A stretch of DNA of 64,000 bases from a virus. Under the pieces are notes generated by a model. That model was not told the DNA's origin and searched no databases. It saw nothing but the letters and a program-made list of their open reading frames with translations. The stretch covers positions 21,064 through 85,063 of IMG/VR virus record IMGVR_UViG_3300032820_000003; one strand, given 5' to 3'. The position numbers and the translations under genes are program-made. Shown piece after piece: positions 16,633 to 30,431 of this stretch; position 1 is the first letter of the stretch, and each line of letters begins with the position of its first letter.

Positions 16633-18006
16633 CTAGGACGTAGCGTTCAAGTCACCAATCTTGGACTGTACCCAGATATTTCTGCATCGCATTTCACCCA
16701 TTGTGTAGAGTAGACCTCTAACAACAAGTGCATTGGCGGCGAAGTAATCTCTGTTCTCTACATACTGCGTGGGTTGCGCTATGGCAATTTCCATGTAGTC
16801 TGTATCAAGTACATAGATGTTTGACCCAAGAACTGAGTCATCGGCGGCTACTGAACTTGGTACATCCGCATCTGGTAGAATTGGGATACCTTGATAAGTA
16901 GCGAGGACTAGTCCAGTTCGTGTACCGGGGAAGGTTCTTTCAGAACCGACTCCAACCTGATACTCTTCCTGTCCCATGTACCTCTGATTGCTATTAAGCA
17001 ACCTTTCCAAGTTAAAGTACTGGTCGTGACCAAGTAGGATCAACTTAGGCTCACCACCATTCTGCCTGATATTCTGTATAGCTGTATCAAGCAAAGTAAG
17101 GGTGAGGTTTCGTCCAACACCAGCATTCATGCTGACGTTAGCGGATGCGTTCCATTGTCCTGCGGCCCTACCACCAAAGGTAAGGTCATAGGCTCGGATA
17201 CCACCATTTGCTGCGAAGTTAGCATTAGGAGTACCGCCAATAAAGTTTTGACCGTCCTCTGCTACTACGTCATCAAGTGATGTCATTCCAGCCCTGCTGT
17301 AAATAGCAACTCCGTCACCATCGGCAAAAGCTGTACCGCTTGCCAAGGTAACAACACCAGTAGTAGTATTAACAGCCGAGACTGTTCGTCCTACTTCACC
17401 TGTAATCCAGTTATTAGCTGAAGTGTCGTATTGTGCTACTGTGTCACCAACTTTAAAGCTGGCTGCCATAGATGCTGGAACTGTAAAAGAAGTTGTTCCA
17501 CCAGCAGATGTAATCATTGCTGCGGGGGACAATAGTTCCTCGTTAATTTCTTTGATGTGGTCAAGCTGTGCATTTTCGTTTTCCAACGCCAACACATCTC
17601 CTACGCCACCCTCAAGCTGTGCAGTAAAGACGGACTTTACCGATGCTCCGAAAGTGGTTGCTACGATTCGGGGTAAACTCGATACCGTTGCGATGTTTGA
17701 GATATCAACATCTGGAAGGGTTCCTGTTTCTGTAACAGGGCGGGATCGTCCTGAACCACGATCAGTTCTGACCCTCCAACCAGCTGTATTTCCCCAGACA
17801 GTTCTGGGAATGGCATTGAAGAAACGAGTTTGGTTATTCAAAGCTTGCCATACTTTTCGTCCATACGTAGTATTAAAAATACCAGTTGCAGTATCGACTG
17901 TGAAATATGATTGTTTCATCATATACTCAGGGCCAAATACGCTCTGATACAAACCACGCTGAGACTGTGCTACATATTCACTAAGTGATGGGTTTGACAT
18001 ACTCAT
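16633..18006 (-). CDS. Major capsid protein (HK97 fold) with an inserted beta domain
   Basis: Follows the scaffold gene and precedes a terminator; GGEPKLIL, LATYQGIPILPD and IYVLDTDY patterns; GGAGG RBS. Confidence 0.85.
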   Translation of the reverse strand: MSMSNPSLSEYVAQSQRGLYQSVFGPEYMMKQSYFTVDTATGIFNTTYGRKVWQALNNQTRFFNAIPRTVWGNTAGWRVRTDRGSGRSRPVTETGTLPDVDISNIATVSSLPRIVATTFGASVKSVFTAQLEGGVGDVLALENENAQLDHIKEINEELLSPAAMITSAGGTTSFTVPASMAASFKVGDTVAQYDTSANNWITGEVGRTVSAVNTTTGVVTLASGTAFADGDGVAIYSRAGMTSLDDVVAEDGQNFIGGTPNANFAANGGIRAYDLTFGGRAAGQWNASANVSMNAGVGRNLTLTLLDTAIQNIRQNGGEPKLILLGHDQYFNLERLLNSNQRYMGQEEYQVGVGSERTFPGTRTGLVLATYQGIPILPDADVPSSVAADDSVLGSNIYVLDTDYMEIAIAQPTQYVENRDYFAANALVVRGLLYTMGEMRCRNIWVQSKIGDLNATS

Positions 18007-24150: not shown

Positions 24151-26124
24151 TTAAATGTCCTCTGTAATATCTATAACAGATGGGGTTTCATCAATTGGTG
24201 TCTTAGGTCGTTCAGGTTTAGTATTACTGAAAGTAGCTTTCTCTACTGATAATACTCCATGCATTCCAAGATCGGCTACATAATCAATACCATTCTGTAA
24301 GAACCATAGTTTTGTACCATCAGGACTTATCTGTTTAACGACAGGACTAGAAAAACCTTTGTTCATTAAGTCTCCCATCCATGTCTTATTCATTGCCCCA
24401 CCAACTTCTTTATATCCGAACTGACGATTCTCTGCTTTCTTGGCTCGTGCCTCTGCATACTCATCAATATCACGTTCTTCATTGGGGGCTTTATCATGCC
24501 AGTCAGGAGTTCGTCCTGCGGTTCGTCCTTCAAACTTTCCATCAGCTTTAAGCATTGCCTGAATAGGGGTTCCTTCTTCGCCACTCGGAGGGGCAGGAAG
24601 TCCACCTTCACCTCCACCTTGAGTAGCTGCCATCTGTTGTTCCTGCATCTGCTGTTGGGCTTGAGCCATTTGATATTGTTGTTCTTGTTGAGCCAACTGC
24701 ATAGCTTGTTGTTCAGCTTGCATCTGAGCAGCAGGAACCATTTCACCGCTAATAATAAATTCGGCATCCTCCATTGGAACACCTTCTTCTTTTAAGGTAA
24801 ACATAAATCCTAGTTGTGACATAGTTTGCATTACTTGCGCCCGTTGCTGAATAAAACTGATTTTCGTAGCTTCAGCTTTTTCTTCAGGATTTGGCATCTC
24901 CAATGTCCAATCAGTTACACCGAAAGCCTCTAATAAAGCAGGAACAACCTTTTGATGAATCAATCGTTGATCACTCTCTACTACTCGACTCATAACAACT
25001 AATTGTTGGGTTTGTGTTGATAGTCCGCCGAAAGCTTCAGGTGCGCCTTGCCATGCAGGAGTAACACCCCACATAGCAGCAATTCGTTCTCGTATTTCCT
25101 CTCTAACAGGTAAATAGTCCATCTCTTGTAATGTATGGAATAGCCTTACAAGGTCTACTCGACCCCTCTGACTTCTAGCAGATACGGCTACCATTGGAAT
25201 AAAGTTAGGATCAATACGAGTTTGGGCTGCGATATGTTCTCGTTCTCTACGTAAGCTTTCAGGATCATCAGTTGTTACCATGATCATAGAAGCGGGCATT
25301 TTCCTCTCAAAGAAATAACGGTATAGATTTTTATCCATACCAATTAAAGTTAACCCTTTTTCAAAGATCGTAAGAATCGGACTCCAACCATAAGTTTCTG
25401 AAGGAGCGAACTTAGATACGTGGATAACTTCGTGTTCCAACAAATACAGGTGTTGATTTCTATGATAGTATTTATACATGACTGGTTGCAGTTCTCTCTT
25501 ACAACCGATTTCTTCACAAGTTCCCGGCCCTTCTGAGAGTTCTTCTCTGTGGATTGGGCATATAAAATGTGCGTTTTTAGGTAAGCCAGCTGTGTCAAGG
25601 TCAAACTCGACAAGGGCTGGATTAAGTCGTCTGATCTCTTTGACTTTGGATCGGAGGACATCCCCATCACTATAATACTCCTTTGCAATATATAGGAACG
25701 CATCATCAATTGAATTCAAATCAAAATGGAATTGTCTCATAACTTCTTCCAAACTCTGGGAGAAGATATTACAATTCTTCATAAATTTGTCAAGTAAATC
25801 TTTTTGTTCAGTATCAGGATCATCAGTTAAAGCTTTCCACTCTAAGCCCCTCCTAAAAACCTCATTTGTAATATGGTTTAAAGGAGATCGTATTTCCTGT
25901 ACCGACATAACAATAGTTTGTAAGTCCATAACTAATTGTTGTCTGTAAGCCATTTGGTGGCGTACCCAAGTATTGACTACGTGATCAAGTCCTATACTTG
26001 GAGCCGTTCCAGTCTCTGCACCATTACTAGCTTTCATTAACTGCATCATATCAATCTGTTGATTTAGATTAGTTAATTGTTGTGCTAGTTGTGGCACTTC
26101 TGGTAAATATTCTGATAATTTCAT
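24151..26124 (-). CDS. Portal protein
   Basis: Lies between terminase and head genes; IRRLNP, YGWSPI and RIAAMWGV patterns; Gln-rich C-terminal region. Confidence 0.85.
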   Translation of the reverse strand: MKLSEYLPEVPQLAQQLTNLNQQIDMMQLMKASNGAETGTAPSIGLDHVVNTWVRHQMAYRQQLVMDLQTIVMSVQEIRSPLNHITNEVFRRGLEWKALTDDPDTEQKDLLDKFMKNCNIFSQSLEEVMRQFHFDLNSIDDAFLYIAKEYYSDGDVLRSKVKEIRRLNPALVEFDLDTAGLPKNAHFICPIHREELSEGPGTCEEIGCKRELQPVMYKYYHRNQHLYLLEHEVIHVSKFAPSETYGWSPILTIFEKGLTLIGMDKNLYRYFFERKMPASMIMVTTDDPESLRREREHIAAQTRIDPNFIPMVAVSARSQRGRVDLVRLFHTLQEMDYLPVREEIRERIAAMWGVTPAWQGAPEAFGGLSTQTQQLVVMSRVVESDQRLIHQKVVPALLEAFGVTDWTLEMPNPEEKAEATKISFIQQRAQVMQTMSQLGFMFTLKEEGVPMEDAEFIISGEMVPAAQMQAEQQAMQLAQQEQQYQMAQAQQQMQEQQMAATQGGGEGGLPAPPSGEEGTPIQAMLKADGKFEGRTAGRTPDWHDKAPNEERDIDEYAEARAKKAENRQFGYKEVGGAMNKTWMGDLMNKGFSSPVVKQISPDGTKLWFLQNGIDYVADLGMHGVLSVEKATFSNTKPERPKTPIDETPSVIDITEDI

Positions 26125-26127
26125 TTA

Positions 26128-26568
26128 TTATTCCCTACCTAAATTAGTCATATCTTGCATTGATACTAATTTTAGAATTGATTGCATTGCTTTTTCCTTC
26201 AATTCATAATCTTCTGAATGAGAGACATCTCTAAGTACTTGAGATTTTCTTTCTTCCAAAAGTAAAATTTGTTCATGTAATTTTTGTATCTCCTGATCTT
26301 TTTCTAAGATCGTAGCTTCTAGTTCCGCTTCACCCGTTCCAAAATTAGCGTTTGCTAAAACTCCTGTTCGGGCTGCCTCTTTAACGATTGAGATAAATTC
26401 TCCTTCCGTTAATATCTTTACTGCTTCACTATCATCATCGATTTCATCTTCAGGCTGTAAAGATTTTAAATCTTCGTGCCATGTATCTAATATACGCCAT
26501 GTATTTGTAAGATCATCCTTAATTGCTACATATTGTACTTCTCTATCTCTTAACATATTCCCTATCAT
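26128..26568 (-). CDS. Hypothetical protein with a coiled coil
   Basis: AAGGAG RBS. Confidence 0.75.
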   Translation of the reverse strand: MIGNMLRDREVQYVAIKDDLTNTWRILDTWHEDLKSLQPEDEIDDDSEAVKILTEGEFISIVKEAARTGVLANANFGTGEAELEATILEKDQEIQKLHEQILLLEERKSQVLRDVSHSEDYELKEKAMQSILKLVSMQDMTNLGRE

Positions 26569-26587: not shown

Positions 26588-26818
26588 CTATTCTAAAGCT
26601 GCTGTTAATTTCTGCGGACTAAAGCCCACAATCATTGTCTCCTTATCAATTACAGTTACTGGTGTAACTCTAAATCCCATTCGTACTAAATCATCTGCAT
26701 ACTCAGGATTTGTTGAAACATTGTATTCTGTAAAATCGTACTTCCTATCTTTTAACCACATCTTGGTCATAGCACATGGGCCTCAACCATTTGATGTAAA
26801 GACGGTTATATTCTTCAT
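26588..26818 (-). CDS. NrdH/glutaredoxin-like selenoprotein (UGPC; in-frame TGA at 26783-26785)
   Basis: AAGGAGG RBS and ATGA overlap at 26818; MKNITVFTSNG-U-GPCAMTKMWL...TPV...VGFSP is a complete 76-aa redoxin. Confidence 0.9.
26745..26785 (-). promoter_or_regulatory. Putative bacterial SECIS element
   Basis: UGACCA-AGAUG-UGGUUA stem-loop (26753-26769); loop starts 19 nt after the UGA with G at loop position 2; possible CUA/UAG lower stem. Confidence 0.7.
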
Positions 26819-26925
26819 TGCGCCTCCTTACGTTGTTTTCTCTCACAAACATAACATAGTCTGCGTTCTTTCTTCACATGTAGTTTAACACCACATTTAC
26901 ATTTTGTCCAGTTTCTTCTAGCCAT
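26815..26925 (-). CDS. 36-aa basic Zn-finger protein, not in the ORF track
   Basis: MARRNWTKCKCGVKLHVKKERRLCYVCERKQRKEAQ; GAGGTG RBS. Confidence 0.65.
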   Translation of the reverse strand: MARRNWTKCKCGVKLHVKKERRLCYVCERKQRKEAQ

Positions 26926-27033: not shown

Positions 27034-28473
27034 CTACTCGTTAGTTAATGTTTCAGTAGGTGCGCCAATAGCAACTTCAACGTTGTCAGATACATTCCAA
27101 TTGGCTGCTGTCACACTTTGATGTATCTTAAATTCCTTAGTAGCAAATCCGTCTGAGGCTCCAGCATTACCACCGCCCCCTATTTCATTAAGTTTAATAG
27201 TCATAGTACCAACTTTCATTCGGTCAAATATACAAGCACCACCTTCCGTATACAAATTACTTAAAGTTAGCTTATCTATCTTACCATTTTTTGCACTTGT
27301 AGGGGCATCGATATGGATTCTATCGTACGATCCGCCTGAAGTCACCATTGCTTCAGCCTGATGATGACCTCCACCGACTGCCCTCATTCTTGAGGTTCCC
27401 GGTGTAGTATTTATTGATTGACCATCTGAAGCGTTTCCAAGTACGTTGATCGTATGCGCTGTTATATTATCAAAATACATCATCGTACATCTTGACTTTT
27501 CGATCAGTAATTCTCCTACCTCTAGGAAGGTAGGGACAGCGTTCTCTCCAGCTACTACTGTACCCCCAATCAATACTGCTGTAGCCGAAGCCGCAGTACC
27601 GCCAGCAGACGTATGTGCTGATGAAGGTATAGCTGAACCGTTATATACAGTTCCTACAGATACATTCTCTATTTTAATTTCTCTTACTGGTGTATCAGAT
27701 AGAACAATTCGTAACGTATTATCTTCTTTATTCTCTTTCCTCCACGCCATTGTTTGTTCTAATGTAGGAGATGGATGTTCAGCGGGAGCAGCATATATGC
27801 CTGAGTCTCCATTTGTGAAGCTTCTATCGGCTAAGACCGTCTCATTTACAACAACTCCAGTACCCGCAGTACCACCTACTGCTAATAAACCAATAGCCAT
27901 CTGTGGGCTTAGACCCATCATTCTCAAGAACGAATATGGAGACATCATAATTTTAAAGGTTGTCTTCCATTTCGCTGACTCAGAATTCAAATATTCAATC
28001 TTGGCTAATAGCCAATTTCTCCATACGGTAATCTTTCTATATAGAGCAATTGGTGATCTAATAACTGCCATTGGAGCAGCTTTAATTGTTTGCCACCACG
28101 CTCTGAAATTACTTACATGTAATAGTAATCCAAGTACAATTAAACCTGACGATGCAGCAACTGTATTTATTAGATTTGCTTGTAAGTAAACAACAAAATC
28201 AAAAAGCCTATTTGCTATACTAAGGGATATATAAGGGGCGAGTGCAGGGATCGGATTAATATACGAACACAGCAAACCAAAACCGCCCATTAATACTAAT
28301 AATGCCGTATTTATCGCCCCCAAAGTTGTAGCTATCCGTTTTACAGGAAGAACCAACGTTGGTAAGGTAATATGTGGCAAACTAAAACTAATCTTTGGTA
28401 ACTTAATAGTCGGCATTTTAAATTCAGGTATTGCTATAACTGATAAAATACTCTTTAAAAACCGTTGTATCAT
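27034..28473 (-). CDS. Membrane protein with a C-terminal beta-rich domain
   Basis: Several TM segments followed by a Gly/Ser/Thr-rich beta region; GAGGTGA RBS. Confidence 0.75.
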   Translation of the reverse strand: MIQRFLKSILSVIAIPEFKMPTIKLPKISFSLPHITLPTLVLPVKRIATTLGAINTALLVLMGGFGLLCSYINPIPALAPYISLSIANRLFDFVVYLQANLINTVAASSGLIVLGLLLHVSNFRAWWQTIKAAPMAVIRSPIALYRKITVWRNWLLAKIEYLNSESAKWKTTFKIMMSPYSFLRMMGLSPQMAIGLLAVGGTAGTGVVVNETVLADRSFTNGDSGIYAAPAEHPSPTLEQTMAWRKENKEDNTLRIVLSDTPVREIKIENVSVGTVYNGSAIPSSAHTSAGGTAASATAVLIGGTVVAGENAVPTFLEVGELLIEKSRCTMMYFDNITAHTINVLGNASDGQSINTTPGTSRMRAVGGGHHQAEAMVTSGGSYDRIHIDAPTSAKNGKIDKLTLSNLYTEGGACIFDRMKVGTMTIKLNEIGGGGNAGASDGFATKEFKIHQSVTAANWNVSDNVEVAIGAPTETLTNE

Positions 28474-28541: not shown

Positions 28542-30431
28542 TTATGCAATTTCACAAGCACTCCAATCACAAGATAAGCACTTATGACAACCGCTTTCAT
28601 ATATAATATTTGGATTTTCACAACAATCAAACGTCATCTCTTCATTTTTAGTCCCTTTTACAAGGATTTCTTTTTCTCGACTTCCAGCCCTATAGACTGT
28701 AATTCCTTTACAATCAGTCTTCCATGCTAACATATACGTCTCATATACATCCTCAATAGTTGCATCATTTGGCATATTAATAGTTTTAGAGATTCCTGAA
28801 TCAACATGAGGTTGAAATGCTGCTTGCATTAAAACATGTTCAGCAGGAGTTAGTTCTGGAGATGTAATATAGATTCGTTTTACATCATCAGGAACATCAT
28901 CTCGATCTTGAAGACTACCCCCTTCAGCTAAAAAGTCCATTAAATCTTCTGAATAAAACTCTCGTTCTTTAGCTTCTTGCTCAAAGTATTTATTTACATA
29001 CATTAATGTTTGAGCCTCTCCTGTCTCCTCTTTTAAAATATTTTGTTTTCTCCATGCCAATGCAAACGTAGGTTCTATACCTGATGAACAGTCTGCTAAC
29101 ATAGATATAGTTCCTGTTGGAGCCACAGTCATACGACAAGCATTTCGATACGCCTCAGTTACATGATTAAATGAACTCTGTTCCCATGCAGGAAAGGTTC
29201 CTCTTTTCGCTGCAAGATCGAGGGATGCTAAATCAGCTTCTCGTGTTATATATTGTATAAGTAATCCTGCAATCTTTCTTGCATCTTCACTATTATAAGG
29301 CACTCTTAATTGTATTAATAGATCAGCAAATCCCATTATACCTACGCCAATCTTGCGAGTTGCTTTAGTCATCTGTTCAATTTCAGGAGTAGCATAATAA
29401 TTTGCATCGATAACATTATCTAAGAAATTTACAGACAGTCTTGTAACTTTAGCTAATCGTTGCCAATCAATATGTTCCTCCCATGATAATGAACTATCCT
29501 CTGATACTAAACCTGATGCATCATAACTTGCAGCTTTCTGATAAAACTTGGCAACATTAATTGATCCTAAATTACATGATTCATTTCCAAGAAGTGGCTG
29601 TTCACCACATGGATTTGTTGCAATCATTTCACCATATTGCCCTATAACTTTATTATCCCTATTAACTTGATCTAAGAAAATCATTCCGGGTTCACCGTTT
29701 CTCCATGCCCCCTCAACTATCTTATTAAAAACATATCTAGCAGAAACAGTATCGACTAAATGATTAGTATGTGGATCAATTAATCCATATGTCATATCAT
29801 ATTCAACCATTTTCATAAATCTAGAATCGACTCCGACTGAAATATTGAAGTTATGAATGTCTCCTTCAGTAGCTTTACAAGCAATGAAATCTAAAATATC
29901 GGGATGATATACTGACATTACTGCCATATTAGCACCGTCACGTTTCCCAGCTTGCGTGACCATAGAAGATACTCGTGAAAGAGTCTTTAATACTTCAATC
30001 GGGCCACAGGCTTTACCATGAGTTGTTTTAATGCTAGTTCCTGCGGGACGTAAATGAGATAATGAAAAACCTGTCCCTCCTCCAAACTTCTGAACCATTG
30101 CCATATCATGAGCAGTTTTCATAATGTCCTGCATACTATCCTCTAAAGGTAGTACAAAACATGCTGATAAAGTTCCTTGTTCAGTTCCAGCATTCATTAA
30201 AGTTGGAGAGTTTGGAACAAATTCTAATTTCTCCATTATATCTATAAATTCCTGTTTAAGTAAATCCTTTTCAACAGGTAAAGTAAGGTAGTCATCTTCG
30301 ACTTTCGCAATTGCTTCAGCCACCCGACTAAATAAATCGTTTCCATCTTCGACAGTTTCCCCTTTATTATTTTTTAAATAGTAACGATTCCTCGCCACAG
30401 TTTCAGCATGTGGTGCTAACGTAGTTGTCAT
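28542..30431 (-). CDS. nrdJ: Class II (adenosylcobalamin-dependent) ribonucleotide reductase
   Basis: PNSPTLMNAG, SACFV, GGGTG, TNPCGEQPL, CNLGS and APTGT; C-terminal Cys-rich tail; no beta-subunit gene in the window. Confidence 0.92.
   Translation of the reverse strand: MTTTLAPHAETVARNRYYLKNNKGETVEDGNDLFSRVAEAIAKVEDDYLTLPVEKDLLKQEFIDIMEKLEFVPNSPTLMNAGTEQGTLSACFVLPLEDSMQDIMKTAHDMAMVQKFGGGTGFSLSHLRPAGTSIKTTHGKACGPIEVLKTLSRVSSMVTQAGKRDGANMAVMSVYHPDILDFIACKATEGDIHNFNISVGVDSRFMKMVEYDMTYGLIDPHTNHLVDTVSARYVFNKIVEGAWRNGEPGMIFLDQVNRDNKVIGQYGEMIATNPCGEQPLLGNESCNLGSINVAKFYQKAASYDASGLVSEDSSLSWEEHIDWQRLAKVTRLSVNFLDNVIDANYYATPEIEQMTKATRKIGVGIMGFADLLIQLRVPYNSEDARKIAGLLIQYITREADLASLDLAAKRGTFPAWEQSSFNHVTEAYRNACRMTVAPTGTISMLADCSSGIEPTFALAWRKQNILKEETGEAQTLMYVNKYFEQEAKEREFYSEDLMDFLAEGGSLQDRDDVPDDVKRIYITSPELTPAEHVLMQAAFQPHVDSGISKTINMPNDATIEDVYETYMLAWKTDCKGITVYRAGSREKEILVKGTKNEEMTFDCCENPNIIYESGCHKCLSCDWSACEIA

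Follow-up and report, generated by a model that had tools for sequence, protein, structure and literature searches.

Glutaredoxins of the UxxC type, with selenocysteine (Sec, U) as the first residue of the active site, are among the verified bacterial selenoprotein families (PMC9312934). Their prototype is cGrx1 of Clostridium (Alkaliphilus) oremlandii, which has the site U/C-P-X-C and is a selenoprotein in its native form (PMC7642778). On the viral side, selenoproteins are documented as glutathione peroxidases of two poxviruses, molluscum contagiosum virus and fowlpox virus, and the selenocysteine insertion sequence (SECIS) of the fowlpox gene lies within its coding sequence (PMC8310308). For huge phages, genes for tRNA-Sec have been predicted, and a re-analysis of GOS states that few or no viral sequences belong to selenoprotein families. 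Here we analysed a stretch of 64,000 nucleotides (the window) from the IMG/VR record IMGVR_UViG_3300032820_000003, in which a glutaredoxin/NrdH-like redoxin gene on the minus strand (26588..26818) contains an in-frame TGA. A preliminary description of the window had proposed that this phage gene encodes a UxxC selenoprotein that depends on the host. A conserved TGA, coding sequence on both of its sides, a covarying hairpin and four agreeing assemblies all support this, and as judged from the sequence it is highly probable that the gene is a UxxC glutaredoxin/NrdH-type selenoprotein with a SECIS-like hairpin, using Sec machinery predicted to be that of the host.

The phage redoxin resembles the bacterial selenoprotein glutaredoxins (cGrx1, 7c10) in its fold, in the proposed place of Sec as the first residue of U/CxxC and in having a SECIS or SECIS-like hairpin inside the open reading frame (ORF) just after the UGA. 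It differs from cGrx1 in its active site, UGPC with a thioredoxin-like dipeptide as compared to UPHC, and the hairpin sequences are unrelated. The client of cGrx1 is a selenoprotein MsrA, whereas the neighbour of the phage redoxin is NrdJ, a ribonucleotide reductase (RNR), and the carrier is a cell in the one case and a lytic-type tailed phage in the other. The NrdH-redoxins of E. coli, M. tuberculosis and C. glutamicum and the B. cereus protein BC3987 are also about 75 residues long and of the same fold, but NrdH has CVQC and WSGFRP where the phage protein has UGPC and VGFSP, and it serves the class Ib enzyme NrdEF while the phage RNR is the class II enzyme NrdJ. NrdH-redoxins act as hydrogen donors of ribonucleotide reductase, and thioredoxin reductase in turn reduces them; we know of no characterised NrdH with Sec. 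The poxviruses likewise have a viral selenoprotein gene relying on host Sec machinery, but they are eukaryotic viruses using the eukaryotic SECIS/SBP2 system, and the protein family is another one. The CxxC redoxins of other phages (PHROG 22; Enterococcus, Bacillus and the mycobacteriophage 'glutaredoxin') are homologues with 37-44% identity along the whole protein, the part ahead of the active site included, and are commonly placed with nucleotide-metabolism genes. Unlike the UGPC phage, they have Cys at the codon in question (for example CPAC in L023) and no hairpin there.

The redoxin frame and its conserved TGA

The redoxin gene starts with an ATG at 26818-26816 and consists of 76 codons followed by a TAG stop at 26590-26588, with the TGA, the proposed selenocysteine codon, as codon 12 (26783..26785, minus strand). 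It had been suggested that a 60-residue ORF extends upstream through the TGA to give a glutaredoxin with a UGPC site, and this extension holds. The readthrough product, MKNITVFTSNG-U-GPCAMTK..., has 76 residues, and the Pfam family Glutaredoxin (PF00462) matches residues 4-60 of it with 49.5 bits against a gathering cut-off of 22.9 (E 4.8e-13), which means that the homology crosses codon 12. When the protein is aligned by HMMER to solved structures, the Cys that opens CPHC in cGrx1 (7c10) and the one that opens CVQC in E. coli NrdH (1h75) both stand opposite the TGA, in agreement with the suggestion that the TGA occupies the place of the nucleophilic Cys. The start of the gene is also as described earlier: the Shine-Dalgarno sequence AAGGAGG (26823..26829, minus strand) stands with a spacer of 4 nt before the ATG, which overlaps the upstream stop as ATGA, and the relatives have AGGAGG or GGAGG at the matching place.

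The AlphaFold model of the redoxin (pLDDT 94) has the topology β-α-β-α-β-β-α. Strand 1 (residues 4-8) precedes the TGA, residue 12 lies directly before or at the start of helix 1, and the TPV cis-Pro loop corresponds to residues 52-54. The nearest structures are cGrx1 (7c10; TM 0.92, 34% identity) and E. coli NrdH (1h75; TM 0.84), and in the alignment the C-terminal VGFSP stands opposite the SGFRP motif of NrdH. The best NCBIfam match is the NrdH-redoxin family TIGR02194, with 66.5 bits and thereby under the curated cut-off of 85.75. The families of Uxx-star glutaredoxin-like selenoproteins (NF041212, NF041211, NF047338) give 46.3 bits, below their cut-off of 66; the Uxx-star rule places Sec three residues before the stop, and the redoxin ends ...TAALE-TAG with no C-terminal UGA. 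The redoxin is a member of the Pfam family Glutaredoxin, NrdH-like in fold and likely role, and is filed neither as NrdH, because of the score below the cut-off and the lack of CVQC, nor as Uxx-star.

About 36 further related loci were found on viral and metagenome contigs from many samples, at 55-87% protein identity, several of them being the same contig present in both collections, and all have a stop at codon 12. It is TGA in every locus for which the DNA was printed, in the context GGN TGA GGN CCN TGY, and invariant in the 21 distinct phage-clade sequences. None of the relatives found above about 55% identity has Cys at this codon; the change of one base to TGT or TGC is avoided throughout the phage clade. 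In the 21 sequences codons 3-11 have a ratio of nonsynonymous to synonymous change (pN/pS) of 0.40 and codons 16-60 one of 0.38, and for the Gly-Pro-Cys directly after the TGA pN is 0 and pS 0.73, with synonymous sites near saturation. Furthermore, three lineages (L016-L018) have no Met after the GPC. The equal selection on both sides, the invariant GPC and the missing Met imply that both sides of the TGA are translated as one protein, and the preliminary description's proposal to look for a conserved TGA with coding conservation on both flanks is in this way answered by 21 out of 21 sequences.

These data bear on the possibility that the UGA is a true stop, with a functional protein of 60 residues beginning at Met17, or with an upstream short ORF that is purely regulatory. 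There is indeed an ATG four codons past the TGA in the window, with a GAGG 10 nt ahead of it, and the databases have it called that way: among 5.8 billion proteins the close relatives appear as about 70 clusters of 59-61 residues, started at the Met after the stop (P0002-P0079), and individual clusters of such fragments are found on 100-150 contigs. However, the product from Met17 would be without strand 1 and the entire active site, the strong AAGGAGG stands before codon 1 and not before Met17, and L016-L018 have no Met to start from. Codons 3-11 and the GPC evolve as coding sequence, and the alignments to Pfam and PDB entries run across the TGA. We regard a true stop as highly unlikely.

The TGA could also be an artefact or a sign of decay, through an assembly error, a recent nonsense mutation in a pseudogene, or a reassignment of the stop codon as in codes 4 or 25. 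Nothing speaks for this beyond the presence of a stop codon inside a region of homology, and it is hardly credible. The contigs of four sequencing runs (12-19x), which may be from one campaign, show zero differences from the window in this stretch, which bears on the earlier call to confirm the TGA by mapped reads, and diverged contigs, dozens of them and from many different samples, have the same TGA, with purifying selection on both flanks. The parent record is a complete-rated genome of 85,063 bp with direct terminal repeats and 37% GC, and a crude gene set in code 11 covers 84% of it, with ORFs open up to 1646 residues. Of 96 ORFs, 65 end in TAA, 21 in TAG and 10 in TGA, and TGA is therefore a normal stop in this genome; the preliminary description, which had pointed to the genes ending in TGA at 2064, 4046 and 13786, was correct that there is no genome-wide recoding. 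No other coding frame in the phage has an internal TGA to read through, and there is no convincing second candidate. The data leave no room for an assembly error, a pseudogene or a reassigned code, unless all assemblies share a systematic error.

The hairpin after the TGA

The RNA directly downstream of the UGA can form a hairpin, UGACCA-AGAUG-UGGUUA (26753..26769, minus strand), which spans the codons M17-T-K-M-W-L22 and has its loop at 26763-26759. The loop begins 19 nt past the UGA and has a G as its second base, exactly as first described. All 21 distinct phage-clade sequences have a hairpin of 6-7 bp whose loop begins 19-20 nt past the UGA; over the full set of 23 distinct sequences the distance from the UGA to the loop is 19-22 nt, and position 1 or 2 of the loop is a G. 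In the fdhF element of E. coli the critical loop G is at position 23, counted from the U of the UGA, and in the phage hairpin the loop G is at position 24. The distance of the loop from the UGA in bacterial SECIS elements is 16-37 nt (PMC10778597), and the phage loop, with its early G, lies inside this range. An apical hairpin of 5/6 bp is the common core in other bacteria (PMC4607533).

The conservation of the hairpin was scored in an ungapped alignment of the 23 sequences, with helix columns 19-25 paired with columns 31-37. In this register 85.7% of the helix cells are paired, and a displacement of the 3' partner by 1-3 columns lowers the figure to 16-55%; RNAalifold returns the same helix. 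Compensatory changes were observed in three pairs, from U-A to C-G, from A-U to G-C, and as an added G-C. The codons in the arm are also unusual: the Thr is encoded by ACC in 20 of 21 sequences and the Lys by AAG in all 21, codons that make up 8% and 27% of the Thr and Lys codons of the genome, and the remaining Thr and Lys codons of the redoxin gene follow the genomic preference. Among the 3089 TGA triplets of the genome 1.55% have a hairpin of the same description, a description that was set after the hairpin had been seen.

A lower SECIS helix is possible (CC.UGU with AUAGG, 26744..26779, minus strand) from the RNAfold prediction of single sequences. Its register slides among the relatives, and it reads GCCC/GGGC in L010 as compared to GUCC/GGAC in L007 and L016. 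It was also observed that the sequence UGGUUGA, which contains the UGA itself, repeats the 3' arm UGGUUA (window 26753-26789), so that the ACCA arm can pair to either side. The pairing with the upstream copy may be an alternative structure or a context effect. The codon of Gly11, GGT, is invariant in the 21 phage sequences.

Cellular homologues, tRNAs and the predicted supply of selenocysteine

A scan of one genome per prokaryotic species gave two matches, both in metagenome-assembled genomes (MAGs) of Dehalococcoidia. Both have TGA at the same codon, followed by a hairpin, GUGAAAG/CUUUCAC, and both MAGs have SelA, SelB and tRNA-Sec above the curated thresholds. The context of the Dehalococcoidia gene is chromosomal, with rpoC, an MFS transporter and an SDR dehydrogenase. 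When 401 Dehalococcoidia genomes were searched, 26 had a homologue at E <= 1e-8, 11 of them with the in-frame TGA and 15 without. In the eight TGA-form loci that were read the TGA is at the first position of the CxxC (UGPC, UAFC, UAPC, UFHC, UPYC), and in the four Cys-form loci that were read the same codon is Cys (CGYC, CAPC). Eight of nine TGA forms have the hairpin, and it is missing from all five Cys forms (Fisher p 0.003). SelB was found in all seven TGA-form genomes tested, the two MAGs of the scan and five more.

An exhaustive HMMER search of 1.84 billion representatives gave the same alternation, with full-length CGPC and CMPC forms at 41-44% identity, and further forms at 45-57% that were called with W or truncated, which is equal to TGA; together with CGYC, the homologues that form a Sec/Cys pair with the phage protein are 37-44% identical to it. 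The alternation of Cys and TGA at codon 12, for which the preliminary description had proposed a search, thus exists in the more distant homologues, Dehalococcoidia included, and the hairpin, whose covariation was to be examined as well, turned out to be conserved, with three compensatory pairs, and tied to the TGA forms. One full-length relative, P0084 (44% identity), has Ser at the Sec/Cys position (SGQC), and this variant may be of the monothiol type.

The UGPC genes of Dehalococcoidia (L042-L045, L050-L052) have the G-U-GPC site, the FTEYNVS motif, the TGA codon and the place of the hairpin in common with the phage. At 46-55% identity they are the closest cellular homologues found by a search with a peptide pattern, and closer ones in other phyla are possible. 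They differ from the phage in their cellular context and in the hairpin, which differs in sequence and is displaced downstream by 3 nt; these most distant relatives encode V-K-V-Y-L-S and not T-K-x-W-L across it. The Dehalococcoidia genomes mostly have 63-68% GC (one TGA-form genome 34%) as compared to 37% in the phage. The capsid protein of the phage was not found in the 401 genomes, a result which says nothing either way on the host.

The window has no tRNA gene according to ARAGORN, as had been stated, and the whole 85-kb genome has only a tRNA-Tyr and no SelB. The model for tRNA-Sec gives 23.9 bits in this genome, on the tRNA-Tyr only, and no Rfam family matched the window. With neither tRNA-Sec nor SelB of its own, the phage must use those of the host. 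Directly upstream of the tRNA-Tyr, just before the start of the window, there is a tRNA-like RNA of 167 nt (genome 20860-21026; L024:361-527, minus strand). It has an acceptor stem, its T arm is perfect, and ARAGORN calls it only at a low threshold and then as an intron-bearing tRNA. It was considered as a phage-borne tRNA-Sec or UGA suppressor and rejected, as it is not a tRNA-Sec, belongs to no Rfam family and has no UCA anticodon loop.

It is conceivable that the decoding of the UGA involves no selenium, in that a near-cognate or suppressor tRNA inserts Trp, Cys or Arg at some frequency, and that the hairpin only slows termination. UGA is the leakiest of the three stop codons, the odd 167-nt RNA lies beside the tRNA-Tyr, and some gene callers already give W at codon 12: four full-length calls in the database of 5.8 billion proteins do so, on short contigs to which code 4 was applied, and none of the close relatives in that database has Cys. 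On the other hand, Trp or Arg in the place of the nucleophile would inactivate a CxxC redoxin, and if Cys were the residue inserted, a single base change would encode it, yet this has happened in no sequence above about 55% identity even with synonymous sites near saturation. The 167-nt RNA is not a tRNA-Sec and is without a UCA anticodon loop, as stated, and the TGA and the hairpin are also found together in chromosomal homologues, in genomes with Sec machinery. Readthrough of this kind is unlikely as an explanation of the locus.

There are also points that weigh against a selenoprotein. The hairpin of the window taken alone is weak, with a folding energy of -7.3 kcal/mol and z scores of 0.07 (dinucleotide shuffles) and -0.18 (synonymous shuffles). 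It is short, 6 bp including one G-U, and its loop, AGAUG, has the G but is without the GU dinucleotide of many relatives. Furthermore, in the RNAfold prediction for the window the ACCA arm prefers the UGGUUGA on its upstream side as partner, and the UGA is thereby buried. The significance of the hairpin comes from its conservation and not from the stability of a single sequence, and here the shuffle control, in which 0 of 500 shuffles reached the observed pairing values, overstates the independence of the covariation because the aligned sequences are related. The rare codons of the arms and the different helix of the most distant relatives are evidence that does not rest on this control. The five Cys-form genomes tested all had SelB too, which shows that it is simply common in the class and does not separate TGA from Cys forms. 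To this are added the score of the redoxin under the NrdH cut-off and the nature of its link to NrdJ, which is one of synteny. Finally, the selenium in the product and the Sec machinery in the phage's own host are both things that we infer, and we count them on this side as well. A UxxC selenoprotein is nevertheless the explanation that we find highly probable.

Gene neighbourhood, proposed function and significance

A small Cys-rich ORF of 36 codons (CxC...CxxC, zinc-ribbon-like; 26815..26925, minus strand) lies immediately upstream of the redoxin gene, and its TGA stop overlaps the ATG of the redoxin. It is 70-94% identical across 13 related phage loci and has no family match. Further upstream are orf479 (27034..28473, minus strand), which encodes 479 residues of no known family and is conserved in the relatives, and nrdJ (28542..30431, minus strand), the gene for an adenosylcobalamin-dependent class II ribonucleotide reductase (TIGR02504, 649.5 bits with a cut-off of 400, and Pfam). 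The C-terminus of NrdJ is a Cys-rich tail (CC...CHKCLSC...C), the type of segment that is re-reduced by redoxins in class II RNRs. No RNR small subunit was found in the phage genome, and no other gene of the Grx/Trx family besides the redoxin. Downstream of the redoxin are orf146 (26128..26568, minus strand; 146 residues, no known family, conserved in the relatives) and the portal protein gene (24151-26124, minus strand). The gene order nrdJ, orf479, the small Cys-rich ORF, redoxin, orf146 and portal is the same in every phage locus that is long enough. There is no terminator-like site from nrdJ to the portal gene, and promoter-like sites are at chance level. In L011-L013 the portal is 92% identical to that of the window and the redoxin 68%, and in L006 the relation is reversed (portal 67%, redoxin 79%); these mismatched identities suggest recombination within the cassette.

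The genome codes for capsid, portal, terminase, prohead protease and tail proteins, and no megablast match was found among 50,697 phage records. In the same records the major capsid protein (16633-18006, minus strand) and the portal protein match only the haloarchaeal siphoviruses HVTV-1, HCTV-1 and HCTV-5, at about 27% identity. An archaeal virus, with a host of the magrovirus type without known Sec, was considered and rejected because the replication genes, RecA, family A polymerase (PolA), DnaG primase and DnaB helicase, are bacterial in type. The exact phage is present in 20 marine plankton metagenome runs; there is no RNA run among the listed sequencing runs that hold it.

If the gene is read as a selenoprotein, the complex of Sec-tRNA(Sec), SelB and GTP of the host would bind the hairpin inside the ORF and, competing with release factor 2, place selenocysteine at the UGA. 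Only the cis signals in the mRNA would be the phage's, and SelA, SelB, SelD and tRNA-Sec, none of which it has, would come from the host. The product would be a redoxin of 76 residues with the active site U-G-P-C, in which Sec12 would attack the substrate disulfide and Cys15 resolve it, by way of a selenenylsulfide between Sec12 and Cys15, and a host enzyme of the thioredoxin reductase type would re-reduce the redoxin. Phage redoxins and NrdH-type redoxins are hydrogen donors of RNRs. By analogy to these, and from the synteny, the client may be NrdJ, the B12-dependent enzyme that the phage itself encodes two genes upstream in a block free of terminators, with its Cys-rich tail as the segment that is reduced; we give this role of the redoxin roughly an even chance.

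A wider reading is possible but tentative, and we consider it rather doubtful. It is that this abundant clade of marine phages of about 85 kb has made nucleotide synthesis during infection dependent on selenium and on the Sec machinery of the host. The hosts would then be Sec-decoding bacteria, with marine Dehalococcoidia (SAR202-type) as candidates from which the gene and its recoding signal were perhaps captured, and phage selenoproteins would be a class missed by gene callers.

The caution of the preliminary description on novelty was apt, as the UxxC glutaredoxin is an already known bacterial selenoprotein family and its carriage by a phage appears unreported. No phage-encoded selenoprotein was found in the literature that was searched, which included the prokaryotic selenoproteome reviews of 2008, 2022 and 2026 and the selenoprotein database paper of 2026, most subscription journals being outside the search. 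What appears to be new is the phage as the carrier and not the family, and absence from the literature is not a proof of this.

The public protein sets contain this redoxin as fragments or with Trp, which is a systematic blind spot of annotation, and virome pipelines miss the gene. With 20 metagenome runs and 100-150 contigs for individual clusters the case is not a rarity. The short hairpin inside the ORF, with natural variants such as AGAUG, AGUCU and GUGAAAG/CUUUCAC, is also a test set for the recognition of SECIS by SelB in an uncultured lineage. If the selenoprotein is real, a phage that needs SelA, SelB, SelD and tRNA-Sec of its host has a built-in constraint on its host range, and the nucleotide supply of a virus would be tied to a trace element of the ocean. 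If the wider reading for the marine clade is true as well, the gene would mark the hosts of these phages as Sec-decoding bacteria.

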